64,000 nucleotides of DNA, from NCBI GenBank assembly GCA_963765145.1, contig CAVXVG010000018.1, positions 128,001 through 192,000 of the forward strand, written 5' to 3'. The notes beneath the pieces were generated by a model. It was not told the origin of the DNA. It made no database searches and saw only the letters and a list, made by a program, of their open reading frames with translations. Origin of the DNA: Parachlamydiales bacterium (GTDB lineage: Bacteria > Chlamydiota > Chlamydiia > Chlamydiales > JAJFMK01). Made by a program: the position numbers and the translations under genes. This document shows positions 31,463-35,684 of this stretch, piece by piece (positions within the stretch are counted from its first letter, which is position 1; each line of letters opens with the position of its first letter).

Positions 31463-31993
31463 TCATTTACCTTGTTGTGGTGATAGTTGCTGCAAAATTG
31501 TAGCAGCAGAGAGATCTTCTGAAGAGGGGGGAAGGGCAATAGTCGAATTTTTTAGTTCGAGTTTTGGCTTTTTTGCAGGCTGCTCGCTGGCGCCTTGCTG
31601 TGAATTTTGTAATGGCTGTTTGTCCTTGTGTATGTTTTGGTCGTGCCGAGTAAGCGAACGTGCGGAGAAAAAAATACGAGAGCATTTTGAGCAAGGAAAT
31701 GGCAGATATTGAATATGGCTATTATGAATGTGACTAGAAAGTTCCCCTTTCACAATCGTTTTCACCTTGAAGCAAGGGCATTTTATGTTTAAATTAGTGT
31801 CTATCGAGTGCGTTTTAAAAATTTCATTTAACTTGTCGTAAGCTATTCTCCGCTGATCAGCAGTCATAGGGGGCTTATGATCTTTTTTTATATAGGTATA
31901 GAGATTCTCCCCGGGTGCTGTGCCAAATGCTATCCCTTCCAATATAGAAGGAAATGTCGAGGTGCTAATAGTAAGTTTAGGTGTTGAGCTCAT
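31463..31993 (-). CDS. C2H2 zinc-finger protein with predicted NLS (paralogue 1)
   Basis: CPC-x13-H-x4-H, then canonical FPCSKCSRIFFSARSLTRHDQNIH; PAKKPKLE. Confidence 0.75.
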   Translation of the reverse strand: MSSTPKLTISTSTFPSILEGIAFGTAPGENLYTYIKKDHKPPMTADQRRIAYDKLNEIFKTHSIDTNLNIKCPCFKVKTIVKGELSSHIHNSHIQYLPFPCSKCSRIFFSARSLTRHDQNIHKDKQPLQNSQQGASEQPAKKPKLELKNSTIALPPSSEDLSAATILQQLSPQQGK

Positions 31994-31998
31994 TCGTA

Positions 31999-34413
31999 TT
32001 AACCAACTTTTCCTTTTTTGAGTTGAGATTGTTTTTCTCTTTTAAGCTGGGCTAACTGCTCAGCTAAAACTTGAGTCGAAATTTTTTCACACTGTTTATC
32101 AGCTAAAGCAAATTTGGCCCTAATGACAGCTTCTTTTACATCACTGACTGCAAGCCCTTTCATCGAAGGCAATTCCTCAGCGATATCGGAAATGTCAACC
32201 TTGTCTGGATGAATTTTTTTCAAAAAGCTGATCAGAATGGTTAGCAGTTGGTCGTGTGTTGGGAGAGGAACTTCTAATTTGGAATCAAAACGACCTGGTC
32301 GCACCAAAGCAGAATCGATCGAGCCGATTCTGTTTGTAGCTGCAAACAAGACAGCGCCGGCTTCTTTTAGCTCATCAATAAAGGACATAAAGGCTTCTAA
32401 AAGTTCGTTGTTCTCGCCAAAGCCTATGTTGGGATTGTCGCGGTTTGGTACCATCATGTCGATTTCATCTAAGAAGACGACCGGAAGGATTCCTTGTTGG
32501 ATTTCAGCTAAAATGTTGCTTTTCATATCCCTAATAGCTGTGGGTGTACCGTGGTGATAGGTACTTGAAAACTTGCTAAGCCTGACTGGATGAAAGGTGA
32601 CCGCATGGTGAGGCAGGTCTGCTTTAAGTTGGGCAGCAACAGCTTTGGCGATGGTCGTTTTTCCGCAACCCGGAGGGCCAAAAAGCATGTAAGAGGGAAG
32701 ACCGGCAATATCAAGCTCTTTCATTAATTGCGGTTGCATTGCAAAAGTAAATAACCGTTTAAAACCGTCTTGGACGCTCTTTGGAAGTCCAGCCATTTCA
32801 TAGAAAGGGGTCACTTCGTCCAAGCTGTTGTCATAGCCTCGACTATTAACGCCGGCAGTGGCTAGGCACTGTTTTAAAAGAGAGGTCGATATTTTGAGTT
32901 CCGGGTCATCTAATACCCTATTCTTGGCAAGTGTAAGGGCCTCCTCTATCTCGAGGTAAGTTAGCTTCGTGACATCGTCGAGAGAGATCTCAATTTTTTC
33001 TTCGATAGATTCATTGTCTAAGTCTGCAAGTCGGCTTTGTAGGTATTCAAGCAGCTCTTCGTCCGACGGTTTGCGTTCTACTACAGCTCTTTCAAACAGA
33101 GTGCTTCCGACATAAGTTGCAGCCTCTTTTTCGCTTTCAACCGATCCAATGACGATCCAACCTTTGTCTTTTAGGGCTCTAACTAGGGCAAGAAGCCAAT
33201 TTTGATTTTCAAATTTGTCTAGCCCTGCCAAGTGTAGGATAGGTAAAAGGCCTGGTGTCATTTCTGCTGATAACGATTCAAAGTTTGGTAAAGCGTAGGC
33301 TTGAACTGAGTGAGGGTGAAGTGTTACAAGGCCAAATTTCTTGCCAGAAAAGGCGTTGTTTAAATCCATCGTGAAGGCTTGTAATAGATCCTTAGCTAGA
33401 TGGGGCTTTAATCCGGATATTAAGAACGAGAAGGGTTTTTCAACATTAAGCCGTTTTCTTAACTCATTCGAATCAAATTGAGAGACTAACTTTGAAAGCT
33501 CTTCTCTAATGCGCTTCGACACACTCTTTACTTTATTGAGAGAGTCTATTGGGTAGGGTACAGTGGTTGGTATCCATTCGTCGATTTGAGCTAGCTCTTT
33601 TTCGGTAACGTTTGAAGTCAAAAGGACCCAGAAACCTGCTGTCTTAAGCTTTTCCACTTGCTTGACGAGTGGATGAGATGTGTCTAAATCTAATATGCGA
33701 GGATTGATATTTTTAATAGTAAGACAGCTGAGTTCTTCTTTTGCTTTTGTTTTTAATAATTCTTCTAAAAATTTAACAGCATCTTCATCGGAGCCACTGC
33801 TTAAATCATATTCATAAGAGCTAACAGTATCAGATGAAAGATCCTGTACTTCTTGAATAAACTCTTTTGCTAAAAGCTCGTTATTTTTTTCATTTAGGCC
33901 GGAGAACATTAAAGTTGGGTAGACCCCCTTGCCTATATATTTTGCTAAAATCAGACTAAGGGTCTGATCGATCTCTTCAAGAGATGTACTTGGCACAGCC
34001 GTTGGGGTGTGAAGAAGTGATTTATAAATGGTTAAAGGTGTTTTTGGTGAAATCATGACACTAGTGACAGGGACCACCAATGTCATCAGAAAACAGATCG
34101 TCGTTTTAGAGGCAGCTGCAAGGCAAGCTGGGAAGCCAGTAGAGAGCCACAAACTTGGTCCTTGGAGACCAATCCCTGGTTGGAGATGAAAAACAAGGGC
34201 TTTAACCGTTTCAATTGCATAGAACACGGTTTCGAAAGCGCAGACTGTAGTACAAATAAAAACAGCACGTCCGATTTTGCTTATCCGTTCATCTAATGCA
34301 TCTGTTTTAAGATCGGCTGCATAAATGTTGAGGAAAAGATTAAGTTTGTCAGCATTGCCTTCCGGTAAAATACTTGGCCAGGAGATGTCTTCATTTGCTT
34401 CAGAAATTTTCAT
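31999..34413 (-). CDS. Large AAA+ ATPase (classical/CDC48-like clade) with hydrophobic N-terminus
   Basis: GPPGCGKT, VVFLDEID and AATNR...DSALVRPGRFD in the C-terminal third; hydrophobic segments near the N-terminus. Confidence 0.8.
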   Translation of the reverse strand: MKISEANEDISWPSILPEGNADKLNLFLNIYAADLKTDALDERISKIGRAVFICTTVCAFETVFYAIETVKALVFHLQPGIGLQGPSLWLSTGFPACLAAASKTTICFLMTLVVPVTSVMISPKTPLTIYKSLLHTPTAVPSTSLEEIDQTLSLILAKYIGKGVYPTLMFSGLNEKNNELLAKEFIQEVQDLSSDTVSSYEYDLSSGSDEDAVKFLEELLKTKAKEELSCLTIKNINPRILDLDTSHPLVKQVEKLKTAGFWVLLTSNVTEKELAQIDEWIPTTVPYPIDSLNKVKSVSKRIREELSKLVSQFDSNELRKRLNVEKPFSFLISGLKPHLAKDLLQAFTMDLNNAFSGKKFGLVTLHPHSVQAYALPNFESLSAEMTPGLLPILHLAGLDKFENQNWLLALVRALKDKGWIVIGSVESEKEAATYVGSTLFERAVVERKPSDEELLEYLQSRLADLDNESIEEKIEISLDDVTKLTYLEIEEALTLAKNRVLDDPELKISTSLLKQCLATAGVNSRGYDNSLDEVTPFYEMAGLPKSVQDGFKRLFTFAMQPQLMKELDIAGLPSYMLFGPPGCGKTTIAKAVAAQLKADLPHHAVTFHPVRLSKFSSTYHHGTPTAIRDMKSNILAEIQQGILPVVFLDEIDMMVPNRDNPNIGFGENNELLEAFMSFIDELKEAGAVLFAATNRIGSIDSALVRPGRFDSKLEVPLPTHDQLLTILISFLKKIHPDKVDISDIAEELPSMKGLAVSDVKEAVIRAKFALADKQCEKISTQVLAEQLAQLKREKQSQLKKGKVG

Positions 34414-34441
34414 AATTAATTAATATAGACAGTGGAGTGAT

Positions 34442-35071
34442 TTAATATAAACGGATTAATCCGGTTATTATGCCATGGATGATCACCTCAGTCTCTCGAA
34501 ATAAGAGAGGAGGGATAGATGGGTTTTGACTGGCGAGACGCACCGTGCCTTCTTCACACAAATATTTTTTTAAGTAAAAGCTCTCTTTCCCTACTTCTGC
34601 CACGACAGTTTCTCCCACATCGGCATAAGATCTGGCTTCAACTAAAAGAAGGTCTCCCTGGTGAACGCCCTCTTCTTGAAAACCATCTCCTTTGACACGA
34701 AAAACATAGGTCGAAGCGGGCTCAAAAACGAAGAACTTGGGTACTGCTATCTCTTGAGGCCTTGGAGACATTTCGATGGGGGCATTGGCAGATAAGCTGC
34801 CAATCAGCGTCAATACATGGACTTCTTCGCTGGAGGCTTTGCCTTCCGGTTTACTTTTTTCTTGCAGCGAGCGGGATCGATAACGACTTTTTTCGATCAC
34901 CCCTTTTTGGACCAATGTTTCGATATGTTTATGGACAGCGCTGACGCTTGGAATGTTCATCCCCTCCCCGATTTCTCTTAAAGAGGGGGCATATCCTTTT
35001 TCTTCTCGAAAACGGTCGATGAAGGTATAGATTTCAAGCTGTCTTGGCGTTAGCCCTTTCATACTCTCCAA
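34442..35071 (-). CDS. lexA: LexA-family repressor with degenerate S24 peptidase domain
   Basis: LTPRQLEIYTFI...GYAPSLREIG...SVSAVHKHIETLVQKG winged HTH; S24-like C-terminus. Confidence 0.8.
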   Translation of the reverse strand: MESMKGLTPRQLEIYTFIDRFREEKGYAPSLREIGEGMNIPSVSAVHKHIETLVQKGVIEKSRYRSRSLQEKSKPEGKASSEEVHVLTLIGSLSANAPIEMSPRPQEIAVPKFFVFEPASTYVFRVKGDGFQEEGVHQGDLLLVEARSYADVGETVVAEVGKESFYLKKYLCEEGTVRLASQNPSIPPLLFRETEVIIHGIITGLIRLY

Positions 35072-35117
35072 ATAGTAGACGGTTTCAAGCTATTGGTCTA
35101 CTTTTTCAACAGAGAAT

Positions 35118-35684
35118 TTAATCAGCAGTGAGGTCTCCTAGTAGTGCAGCAGTAAGGCCTTCTGGTAAGATGTATGTTGTGCTCGAGTTGGATTGTTGAG
35201 ACTCACTTGCAGTTTTTTGCTTTTTTGCAGGCACATCGCTGTTTGCATATTGTGAATCGGCGGGTGCCCGCTTCAGGTTGCCAATTAAAGAGTTGTTTTC
35301 TGTTAAAGAGTTGTTTTCTATTAGTTCGGAGTGCACCTTTCTTTGGTGTCTCTTGATCTGCTTTTCTGCTTGATAGGTTTTGCCGCAAAAAAAACAACCG
35401 AAAGCTTCATATTTAATGTGCATGACAAGTTGGTGGTTGCGCGCAGTCTCTTTAAATGCTGTTTTAGATTTCCCGCAAGGACATACCATATCGGATGACT
35501 TATCTATCCTGTGCATATCAAAAAGTGCAACTACCTTCTCTTTGAGCGTTCTTTGTTGTTCAACAGTCAAAGTGGGCTGATTCCCCCTCGTTATGTAGTC
35601 ATGTAGGTTTTCCCCAAGTCCGGTTCCATAAGTTATCCCCATTAATTTATTCGGGTAGTTTAATGTATTTATTGTAAAAGTCAT
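35118..35684 (-). CDS. C2H2 zinc-finger protein with predicted bipartite NLS (paralogue 2); start moved to MTFTINT
   Basis: CPC-x13-H-x4-H, then FGCFFCGKTYQAEKQIKRHQRKVH; KRAPADSQYANSDVPAKKQK; N-terminus aligns with paralogue 1. Confidence 0.75.
   Translation of the reverse strand: MTFTINTLNYPNKLMGITYGTGLGENLHDYITRGNQPTLTVEQQRTLKEKVVALFDMHRIDKSSDMVCPCGKSKTAFKETARNHQLVMHIKYEAFGCFFCGKTYQAEKQIKRHQRKVHSELIENNSLTENNSLIGNLKRAPADSQYANSDVPAKKQKTASESQQSNSSTTYILPEGLTAALLGDLTAD

Follow-up and report, generated by a model that had tools for sequence, protein, structure and literature searches.

A rare pair of tandem C2H2 zinc-finger genes in a Parachlamydiales bacterium, plausible candidates for bacterial zinc-finger nucleomodulins

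The DNA analyzed here is a stretch of 64,000 nucleotides (nt) from an uncultured Parachlamydiales bacterium of peat (GenBank assembly GCA_963765145.1, contig CAVXVG010000018.1, positions 128,001 to 192,000 of the forward strand), below referred to as the window. Two of its genes, here named ZnF1 (positions 31463-31993, minus strand, 176 amino acids (aa), protein P0001) and ZnF2 (35118-35684, minus strand, 188 aa, protein P0002), encode small proteins with two tandem zinc fingers of the classical Cys2His2 (C2H2) type. Our analysis presents them as a real and rare gene pair and, judging from the sequences, as a plausible first C2H2 nucleomodulin of bacterial origin. The reading we favor, to which we give slightly less than an even chance, is that the two proteins are transcription-factor mimics of about 20 kDa that would be secreted by the type III system, enter the nucleus of the host, presumably a peat protist, and bind host DNA. 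Its main rival is a regulator acting inside the bacterium.

Both open reading frames (ORFs) had been pointed out in an initial annotation made from the sequence alone, and both are present on the minus strand at the positions it gave. They are paralogues and real genes, not products of chance. BLASTP aligns the two proteins at 32% identity over 155 columns (E-value 8e-29), in agreement with the paralogy claimed earlier. A strict C2H2 regular expression is matched by 2 of the 2191 crude ORFs of the genome, ZnF1 and ZnF2, with a mean of 0.05 matches in 20 proteome shuffles, and an expression for tandem fingers selects the same two of the 2191 ORFs, with a mean of 0.0 in 20 shuffles. The start of ZnF2 at 35684 agrees with the alignment of the paralogues, and AGGA lies 6 nt before it; possible alternative starts are ATG at 35714 (198 aa) and TTG at 35738 (206 aa).

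The family alignment comprises four proteins, ZnF1, ZnF2, P0003 and P0004, the last two being orthologues of ZnF1 with 49-50% identity. All motifs listed in the initial annotation were recovered: the N-terminal motif (GIAFGTAPGENLYTYI in ZnF1 and GITYGTGLGENLHDYI in ZnF2), both fingers, the basic patch (PAKKPK in ZnF1, PAKKQK plus KR in ZnF2) and the tails SAATILQQL and TAALLGDL. In the N-terminal motif, G28, N30, L31, Y34 and I35 (here and below in the numbering of ZnF1) are invariant in all four proteins, as are the eight putative zinc ligands, C72, C74, H88 and H93 in finger 1 and C101, C104, H117 and H122 in finger 2. Retention of the zinc ligands and the tail motifs across proteins that are 32-50% identical shows purifying selection on what is predicted to be a specific fold. 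The features of the two genes are as follows.

31463-31993, minus strand: ZnF1 coding sequence, 176 aa (P0001); it closes the minus-strand run, its ATG lying 5 nt past the stop of the AAA gene.
31952-31993, minus strand: ZnF1 leader, residues 1-14, modelled without secondary structure, Ser/Thr-rich, with no acidic residue; candidate type III signal.
31796-31951, minus strand: ZnF1 N-terminal domain (N-domain), residues 15-66, family-specific and helical, holding G-x-N-L-x-x-Y-I; helices at 15-20, 31-36 and 45-61.
31715-31795, minus strand: ZnF1 finger 1, residues 67-93, atypical C-P-C-x13-H-x4-H with C72, C74, H88 and H93.
31628-31714, minus strand: ZnF1 spacer IQYLPFP and canonical finger 2, residues 94-122; helix positions -1, 2, 3 and 6 are S, R, S, R as read from the sequence.
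31556-31579, minus strand: ZnF1 basic patch PAKKPKLE, residues 139-146, in the predicted disordered tail; candidate nuclear localization signal.
31481-31516, minus strand: ZnF1 C-terminal amphipathic helix DLSAATILQQLS, residues 160-171; helix 163-170 modelled at a low predicted local distance difference test score (pLDDT).
35118-35684, minus strand: ZnF2 coding sequence, 188 aa (P0002), with a near-identical copy on the independent metagenome contig L018.
35331-35483, minus strand: both fingers of ZnF2, residues 68-118, with C68, C70, H84 and H89, then C97, C100, H113 and H118; helix positions -1, 2, 3 and 6 of finger 2 are A, K, Q, R.
35285-35320, unstranded: 18-nt tandem duplication in the ZnF2 tail (ENNSLT / ENNSLI), from the repeat search.
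35214-35231, minus strand: ZnF2 basic patch PAKKQK, residues 152-157, with KR at 138-139, 14 residues upstream; bipartite-like.
35127-35162, minus strand: ZnF2 C-terminal helix GLTAALLGDL, residues 175-186; helix 175-185 modelled at low pLDDT.

The initial annotation described tandem fingers of the classical type in both proteins, and this description holds, given the invariant ligands, the seven-residue spacer and the profile matches to solved arrays. Finger 2 has the pattern F-x-C-x2-C-x3-F/Y-x5-L/I-x2-H-x4-H, that is, the classical C2H2 spacing, in all four family proteins. Finger 1 (C-x1-C-x13-H-x4-H) departs from the strict C2H2 spacing, the distance from the first Cys to the first His still being 16 residues. 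It seems to derive from a normal finger by the shift of a cysteine, since its C-P-C aligns without gaps to the canonical C-P-T-C finger of a protein from another chlamydial genome, G218 (see below). Seven residues separate the last His of finger 1 from the first Cys of finger 2 (H93-IQYLPFP-C101 in ZnF1 and H89-IKYEAFG-C97 in ZnF2), as many as in the TGEKP-type spacer of DNA-reading arrays; Tyr and Phe in this spacer are invariant, while Pro, of the two proteins, is kept only in ZnF1. Positions -1, 2, 3 and 6 of the finger 2 helix are S,R,S,R in ZnF1, A,K,Q,R in ZnF2, and S,L,T,R and S,N,S,K in the other two family members, so that position 6 is always basic and positions 2 and 3 vary.

At E<=1 the four-protein profile matches 136 distinct solved sequences, led by eukaryotic poly-finger proteins: ZNF568 (9.8e-9), Aart (1.6e-6, profile positions 71-124), HKR3 (3.9e-5, 67-120), ZFP57 (4.7e-5), INSM1 (9.4e-5, 72-124) and CTCF (1.1e-4, 71-127), where the E-values of multi-finger chains are inflated by repeats. 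These matches lie within profile positions 67-127, several of them extending over both fingers. Among 1.84 billion representative proteins, 6046 match the family profile at E<=0.001 via the finger region. Of the 150 matches listed among these 6046, two are full-length, P0003 and P0005 (the latter being ZnF2 read from the 198-aa start, with TAD changed to TTD as its one substitution), and the other 148 are long proteins matched 3-38 times through their fingers. NCBIfam yields no matches for ZnF1 or ZnF2. The proteins are also unlike the bacterial Ros/MucR type in these terms, as there is no ROS_MUCR Pfam match at E<=1 and their two fingers stand in tandem with x12-13 spacing.

AlphaFold2 models of both proteins are of modest confidence (mean pLDDT 56.0 and 49.5) and share one layout: an unstructured N-terminal stretch, three helices, two strand-strand-helix units, a disordered tail of 35-50 residues and a terminal helix. 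The two predicted strand-strand-helix units are at the expected places with pLDDT of about 60-77, while residues 1-10 of ZnF1 have pLDDT 42 and the C-terminal helix, predicted in both models, has pLDDT <50. The top rows of a Foldseek search against PDB are all C2H2 proteins (Tramtrack 2drp, CTCF, ADR1), yet with E>0.4, and the whole model gives no rows at E<=0.001. A wide structural scan of 48,161 chains with VIA-align reaches Z<=3.0, and no fold can be named for the N-domain. Prediction of an N-domain homodimer from two copies scores 0.02 against a mark of 0.42, which is no verdict and not evidence either way.

Some of these features could belong to secreted effectors that do not bind DNA, their fingers instead binding proteins or RNA of the host, be it cytosolic or nuclear, while the tail would dock on other host machinery through its motifs. 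Such a role would fit the C-x-C knuckle of finger 1 and the small number of basic recognition residues (net charges of +1 to +3), the lack of a known fold match for the N-domain (Z<=3) and the fact that two-finger arrays alone are often too weak for DNA binding. However, the seven-residue spacer with Pro and Phe in the usual places and the basic residue in helix position 6 are hallmarks of DNA reading, and the best solved matches are DNA-bound arrays; we consider this alternative improbable.

The sequence searches show the family to be tiny and lineage-restricted. In a search of 5.77 billion proteins only P0001, P0003 and P0004, among 23 candidates, reach E<=0.01, and the N-domain alone, used as a query against longer proteins, returns the same four clusters only, among 3325 candidates. 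In a set of one genome per species covering 185,579 prokaryote species, 0 of 193 pattern matches were confirmed. A scan of metagenome contigs confirmed 1 of 531 pattern matches; this contig, L018, comes from the same species and carries PAP2-ZnF2-lexA with 4 differences in 1214 nt. The genome itself (84.8% complete) contains just two copies of the family. The initial annotation had made its proposal depend on close homologues not being common in free-living bacteria, and they are indeed not common: none was found in the 185,579 species genomes and only the four clusters among the 5.77 billion proteins.

The proposal had also assumed a chlamydia with type III secretion, and both parts of this assumption agree with the genome. 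The organism belongs to the order Parachlamydiales, and the genome, according to profile matches, encodes an injectisome (type III secretion system): FHIPEP/SctV is matched with 763.9 bits, an adjacent HrpJ/CopN-type gatekeeper with 54 bits (none of the 14 control genomes has a match) and a secretin with 110.5 bits. Residues 2-25 of ZnF1 contain 42% Ser and Thr, which is the 99.4th percentile of the 2191 crude ORFs, and positions 2-15 contain no Asp or Glu in any of the five sequences examined; this assessment of the type III leader is a composition heuristic and not a trained predictor.

In the basic patch, A140, K141 and K142 are invariant in the four-protein alignment, and K-[KR]-x-[KR] stands at one aligned place in three of the four proteins, as KKPK in ZnF1 and P0004 and as KKQK in ZnF2, where KR precedes it by 14 residues. 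Anywhere in the protein, the same pattern occurs in 19% of the genome's ORFs of <=220 aa. Its position at one aligned place in a predicted disordered tail argues for a function of some kind. The patch may also be similar to the c-Myc type of nuclear localization signal. The disordered tail is 61-72% identical among the ZnF1-type proteins, compared to 30-59% in the fingers, and a tail as conserved as the fingers would be typical of short docking motifs. At its end, A164, L167 and L170 are invariant, and the short C-terminal helix seen in the initial annotation is present in both AlphaFold2 models, at the low pLDDT given above. The spacing from A-A to L is not conserved, being one residue shorter in P0004 and ZnF2, and for this reason the recruitment of co-repressors by the tail, based on what we presume to be a likeness to the Sin3-interaction-type A-A-x-x-L helix, stays speculation.

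The coding DNA of the two genes also contains a 44-nt match (31562-31605 against 35214-35257) with 75% identity, rising to 18 of 19 nt over the P-A-K-K-x-K codons. As this is far above the 32% identity of the proteins, strong constraint or gene conversion over a short patch may lie behind it.

The minus-strand gene order of the locus is YhhQ, PAP2 phosphatase, ZnF2, lexA, AAA gene, ZnF1, and pssA converges on this run. Its further features, with G304 being a complete genome of the same genus, are the following.

34442-35071, minus strand: lexA, with ZnF2 on one side and the AAA gene on the other; scores 130.3 bits with NCBIfam TIGR00498 (cut-off 110.95); 84% identical to G304.
31999-34413, minus strand: AAA gene, 804 aa, between lexA and ZnF1, for a membrane-anchored protein; hydrophobic N-terminus, AAA domain of the CDC48/Afg2 type, hypervariable.
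35028-35063, unstranded: direct repeat copy B, 36 nt, over the lexA start; right border of the 775-bp ZnF2 insert.
35803-35838, unstranded: direct repeat copy A, 36 nt, over the end of the PAP2 gene; left border of the ZnF2 insert.

Comparison with relatives shows ZnF1 and ZnF2 as strain- or species-specific insertions into a conserved lexA neighborhood. G304 has pssA, the AAA gene, lexA, PAP2, YhhQ and RmuC in the same order and no zinc-finger gene, its flanking proteins being 87% (PssA), 84% (LexA) and 64% (PAP2) identical to those of the window. The two 36-nt repeat copies around ZnF2 are 94% identical at a spacing of 775. In G304 the repeat sequence is single-copy and coincides with the place where the PAP2 stop and lexA start overlap, and a 311-nt contig of a relative (about 92% identical) from a peat run joins 35035 directly to 35811. 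Because G304 holds the repeat once and the contig of the relative joins the borders directly, the polarity of the event at ZnF2 is, by sequence comparison, an insertion with duplication of the PAP2/lexA overlap.

At ZnF1, contigs of relatives end at the gene borders, with loose ends at 31407 in all four runs and at 32006 in two runs. The only pieces covering ZnF1 in four peat runs are identical to the window, while the genes on either side additionally recruit relatives at 85-96% identity. Ten of the 11 pieces on 31380-32030 have no differences, and the eleventh, 34 nt long (31997-32030, the 3' end of the AAA gene), has two. All pieces within ZnF1 being identical to the window, there are no population variants in it for the ratio of nonsynonymous to synonymous substitution rates (dN/dS). 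One 832-nt contig, from run X3 (31683-32514), is identical to the window over 31683-32030 and then has 32 differences in 484 nt of the AAA gene; this contig is an assembly chimera or else marks a recombination boundary where ZnF1 meets the AAA gene.

The 775-bp insert also contains, between the end of ZnF2 and the beginning of lexA, a perfect 6-nt inverted repeat, GTAGAC-N15-GTCTAC (35075-35101), which could be an operator (perhaps a LexA box) or a weak stem-loop. Counts of promoter-like sites (13, compared to 9.7 +/- 2.9 in shuffles) and terminator-like sites (7, compared to 6.6 +/- 2.4) are not informative. The composition of ZnF1 and ZnF2 is mildly low, at the 17th-18th percentile for GC content and the 9th-16th percentile for the codon score; a recent foreign origin by composition was considered and rejected, the deviation being too mild to call.

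The 804-aa AAA protein has a region of about 400 residues with no family match between its hydrophobic segment and the AAA domain. Its counterpart in G304 is 525 aa long and 33% identical over the ATPase domain only, while the neighbors are 64-87% identical, and the protein is fast-evolving and possibly host-facing. Two more genes of the window are split: isoleucyl-tRNA synthetase (38405-41525, minus strand) into the overlapping ORFs 38405-40057 and 39858-41525, and RmuC (37075-38231, plus strand) into ORFs of 62 aa and 321 aa. Both are single long ORFs in G304, and by this comparison the splits are frameshifts, due either to assembly indels or to pseudogenes.

The insertion history could also be that of a recombination cassette whose cargo has no role in the host, ZnF1 and ZnF2 being selfish or neutral genes or parts of a system with the AAA ATPase, such as a defense system. 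The ZnF2 insert does have duplicated flanks, and the AAA domain matches the models of anti-phage IetA/IteA (E 1.9e-28 and 2.1e-26), with 93 bits against an equivalog cut-off of 510. At the same time, neither ZnF1 nor ZnF2 has any PADLOC match, the AAA domain is generic CDC48/Afg2-like, G304 has the AAA gene without the zinc-finger genes, and the ligands and tail motifs are conserved at 32-50% identity. This explanation thus seems to us very improbable.

Relatives of the two-finger module in the phylum were sought in a sample of 400 genomes, in which G005 was not scored and six of the seven non-self matches were inspected (L010, with four internal stops, was left out). Apart from the family itself, the profile finds only weak, finger-only matches there. 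True C2H2 proteins among the six inspected are L005 and L006, in the genomes G218 and G056, which represent one genus of another family; the remaining four (L007, L008, L009 and L011) have no finger pattern and were dropped. All C2H2 proteins of these two genomes are annotated as 'hypothetical protein'.

In G218, a 294-aa protein (L027, G218:C3:97000-113000, 7400-8284) consists of an uncharacterized N-domain, an acidic stretch and three C2H2 fingers, the first two of which are the closest outside relatives of the ZnF1/ZnF2 module. This two-finger module is 39% identical to that of P0003 over 51 ungapped residues. With the G218 protein as a query, matches are found in 3 of 401 genomes, namely G218, G056 and the genome studied here (ZnF1, E 3e-5). 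Directly downstream of the 294-aa gene (L027, 8570-9127) is a paralogue of its N-terminal half (67%) that ends before the fingers. The neighborhood in G218 is different, with an SppA-like peptidase and polA.

In G056 (97% complete), three consecutive C2H2 genes (L026, G056:C18:5000-21000, 6213-10346) lie between pssA (44% identical) and PAP2 (34%), followed by RmuC. This pssA-PAP2-RmuC interval is the same as in the window, the orientation relative to pssA being different. One of the encoded proteins, of 239 aa, passes the Pfam zf-C2H2 cut-off, matches WT1 (1.6e-30), KLF5, KLF4 and EGR1, and has three fingers followed by RNRKRRKK; another, of 493 aa, has a pair of fingers at the N-terminus and one finger at the C-terminus, KRRQ...KRRRL, and a long stretch rich in Pro, Ser and Gln. 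Two more three-finger genes are located side by side on contig C13 of the same genome (L025, 1360-3076).

Several observations weigh against a role in the host nucleus, and some of them also favor a regulator inside the bacterium. In the proteins themselves, the C-x-C knuckle of finger 1 is non-canonical, and residues typical of base contacts are few in this finger. Pfam C2H2 models match P0001-P0004 below their cut-offs (14-17 bits against 25-40). Of the checks proposed in the initial annotation, the zf-C2H2 models thus gave no formal hit, while structure prediction gave the two strand-strand-helix units at modest pLDDT. Scores below the cut-offs are usual with one canonical finger, and therefore lower the formal membership but not the fold assignment. 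The Ser/Thr content is extreme in ZnF1 only, ZnF2, P0003 and P0004 being at the 78th-89th percentile. The basic patch consists of just four residues, and AKKPN in P0003 breaks the K-K/R-x-K/R consensus. Hence, of the PAKKxK signal proposed earlier, the conserved A-K-K in a predicted disordered tail and the additional KR in ZnF2 stand, and the full consensus does not hold throughout. Moreover, proteins of 20 kDa enter nuclei by diffusion without a nuclear localization signal, and two fingers alone are usually weak DNA binders. The label 'eukaryote-type' stands as far as the best solved matches are eukaryotic; on the other hand, the nearest language-model neighbors include C2H2 clusters of giant viruses and archaea, and the PHROGs family phrog_6283 weakly matches residues 94-127 of ZnF2 (E 2e-4, the sole PHROGs match).

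The remaining points come from the locus. ZnF2, lexA, the AAA gene and ZnF1 are arranged on one strand in an operon-like manner with gaps of 46, 28 and 5 nt, and because of these gaps the zinc-finger genes are probably co-transcribed with lexA, the gene of the SOS repressor, as would suit a role within the bacterial cell. In GC content and codon use the two genes deviate only mildly, and thus nothing there indicates a recent eukaryotic donor. The locus was found in 18 runs, from peat and soil metagenomes, none of them on record as RNA. Chlamydiae are known to employ chromatin proteins of a eukaryote-like kind within their own cells (Hc1/Hc2). In the table of a nucleomodulin review, cpnSET is listed as acting on Hc1/Hc2 (PMC7819608).

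In the main rival reading, ZnF1 and ZnF2 would be regulators of foreign (eukaryotic, viral or archaeal) ancestry that stay inside the bacterium and bind the chlamydial chromosome, possibly in connection with the SOS response through lexA, the basic patch being a DNA-contacting tail. The short gaps of the run, the fact that lexA is a true equivalog, a composition near the genome's own, the existence of small C2H2 proteins in archaea and viruses together with the phage family match to ZnF2, and the cpnSET precedent all favor such a role. However, lexA and the AAA gene are present in G304 although both zinc-finger genes are absent there, and ZnF1 and ZnF2 are therefore dispensable for that circuit. 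The ZnF2 insert looks recent, a long conserved disordered tail with a terminal helix is unusual for bacterial regulators, and the G056 relatives from the same interval have strongly eukaryote-like DNA-binding domains and polybasic stretches. Although it is the main rival, we regard a regulator inside the bacterium as unlikely.

The reading of ZnF1 and ZnF2 as secreted transcription-factor mimics is favored because of the two-finger layout, the conserved tail with its K-K-x-K patch and the leader without acidic residues, as well as the accessory, fast-turnover character of the genes, the injectisome encoded in the genome and the eukaryote-like relatives in the same interval of G056. In the mechanism we propose, the N-terminal 15-25 residues or so, with no modelled secondary structure and no acidic residue, would serve as the secretion signal, and importin-alpha would bind the conserved A-K-K-[PQ]-K patch in the disordered tail. 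Together the fingers would recognize some 6 bp, and with helix position 6 of finger 2 kept basic and positions 2 and 3 varying, the paralogues might have different targets. The N-domain and the C-terminal A-A-x(1-2)-L-x-x-L helix may contact host factors or add affinity. A bolder version, which we find doubtful, sees in ZnF1 and ZnF2 the first bacterial C2H2 nucleomodulins, in which leader, orphan N-domain, two fingers, import signal and docking helix together rewire transcription in a protist host. The zinc-finger genes between pssA and PAP2 would then form an old island with fast turnover, home in another chlamydial family to a WT1/KLF-type protein with three fingers, and the varying recognition helices would reflect an arms race over host sites.

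The C2H2 finger is the commonest DNA-reading module of eukaryotes, and the known bacterial deliveries to the nucleus are enzymes, ankyrin or tandem-repeat proteins, and TAL effectors. If ZnF1, ZnF2 and the G056-type proteins are injected, chlamydiae copy the architecture of host transcription factors, and the pair would be both a compact natural example of how effector DNA recognition evolves and a handle on the host genes that environmental chlamydiae must control. Should they instead work within the bacterium, they would be regulators beside lexA of a kind rare in bacteria, built on tandem eukaryote-type fingers.

In the available part of a review of bacterial nucleomodulins (PMC7819608) 'zinc finger' occurs three times, and none of these occurrences names a bacterial C2H2 effector. 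Nor is a bacterial effector built on the classical C2H2 finger described in the literature searched. Nucleomodulins and transcription-factor mimics as such are known; the bacterial version with tandem classical C2H2 fingers and an orphan N-domain is not described in the same literature. TAL effectors of Xanthomonas and Ralstonia are injected by type III secretion, have nuclear localization signals and bind host promoters (PMC12488382, PMC7819608). In contrast to ZnF1 and ZnF2, they use 34-residue repeats as the DNA-reading module, are far larger and have an acidic activation domain. Among chlamydial nucleomodulins, NUE/cpnSET, which are SET-domain methyltransferases, and SinC are described as delivered by type III secretion to host nuclear structures (PMC7819608). 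They belong to the same phylum, but unlike ZnF1 and ZnF2 they are enzymes or bind the nuclear envelope, none of them being a sequence-specific zinc-finger DNA binder.

The closest functional analogues are the MoHTR1, MoHTR2 and MoHTR3 proteins, the function on the side of ZnF1 and ZnF2 being only inferred. In Magnaporthe oryzae, the small C2H2 proteins MoHTR1 and MoHTR2 are secreted and reach the nucleus of the host (PMC12488382). For MoHTR1, two papers (PMC12488382, PMC10189765) give a short classical basic signal, RxKK, importin-alpha and reprogramming of host transcription. The MoHTR proteins differ from ZnF1 and ZnF2 in being fungal, in having a Sec signal peptide and, in MoHTR2, a single finger domain.

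In Ros/MucR proteins, a single finger with shorter spacing is set in a larger globular fold, unlike the two predicted tandem beta-beta-alpha fingers with eukaryote-type spacing in ZnF1 and ZnF2. The Ros/MucR family comprises bacterial Cys2His2 zinc-binding DNA regulators (PMC12491435, PMC4083442). The G056 and G218 proteins differ from the family in their other N- and C-terminal regions and in having three fingers, one of the proteins having a domain unmistakably of the WT1/KLF/EGR type; in common with it they have the shared two-finger module (G218), the same interval (G056) and basic clusters after the fingers. Finally, ZnF1 and ZnF2 are unlike classical C2H2 proteins of the TFIIIA/Krueppel type, such as Tramtrack and ADR1, in that finger 1 has C-x-C and not C-x2-4-C, the Pfam cut-offs are not reached, the proteins are encoded by a bacterium, and the orphan N-domain attached to the fingers has relatives within the family only. 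They are like them in finger 2 (F-x-C-x2-C-x3-F-x5-L-x2-H-x4-H), in the seven-residue spacer with Pro and Phe where TGEKP-F/Y has them, and in the profile matches to solved arrays.

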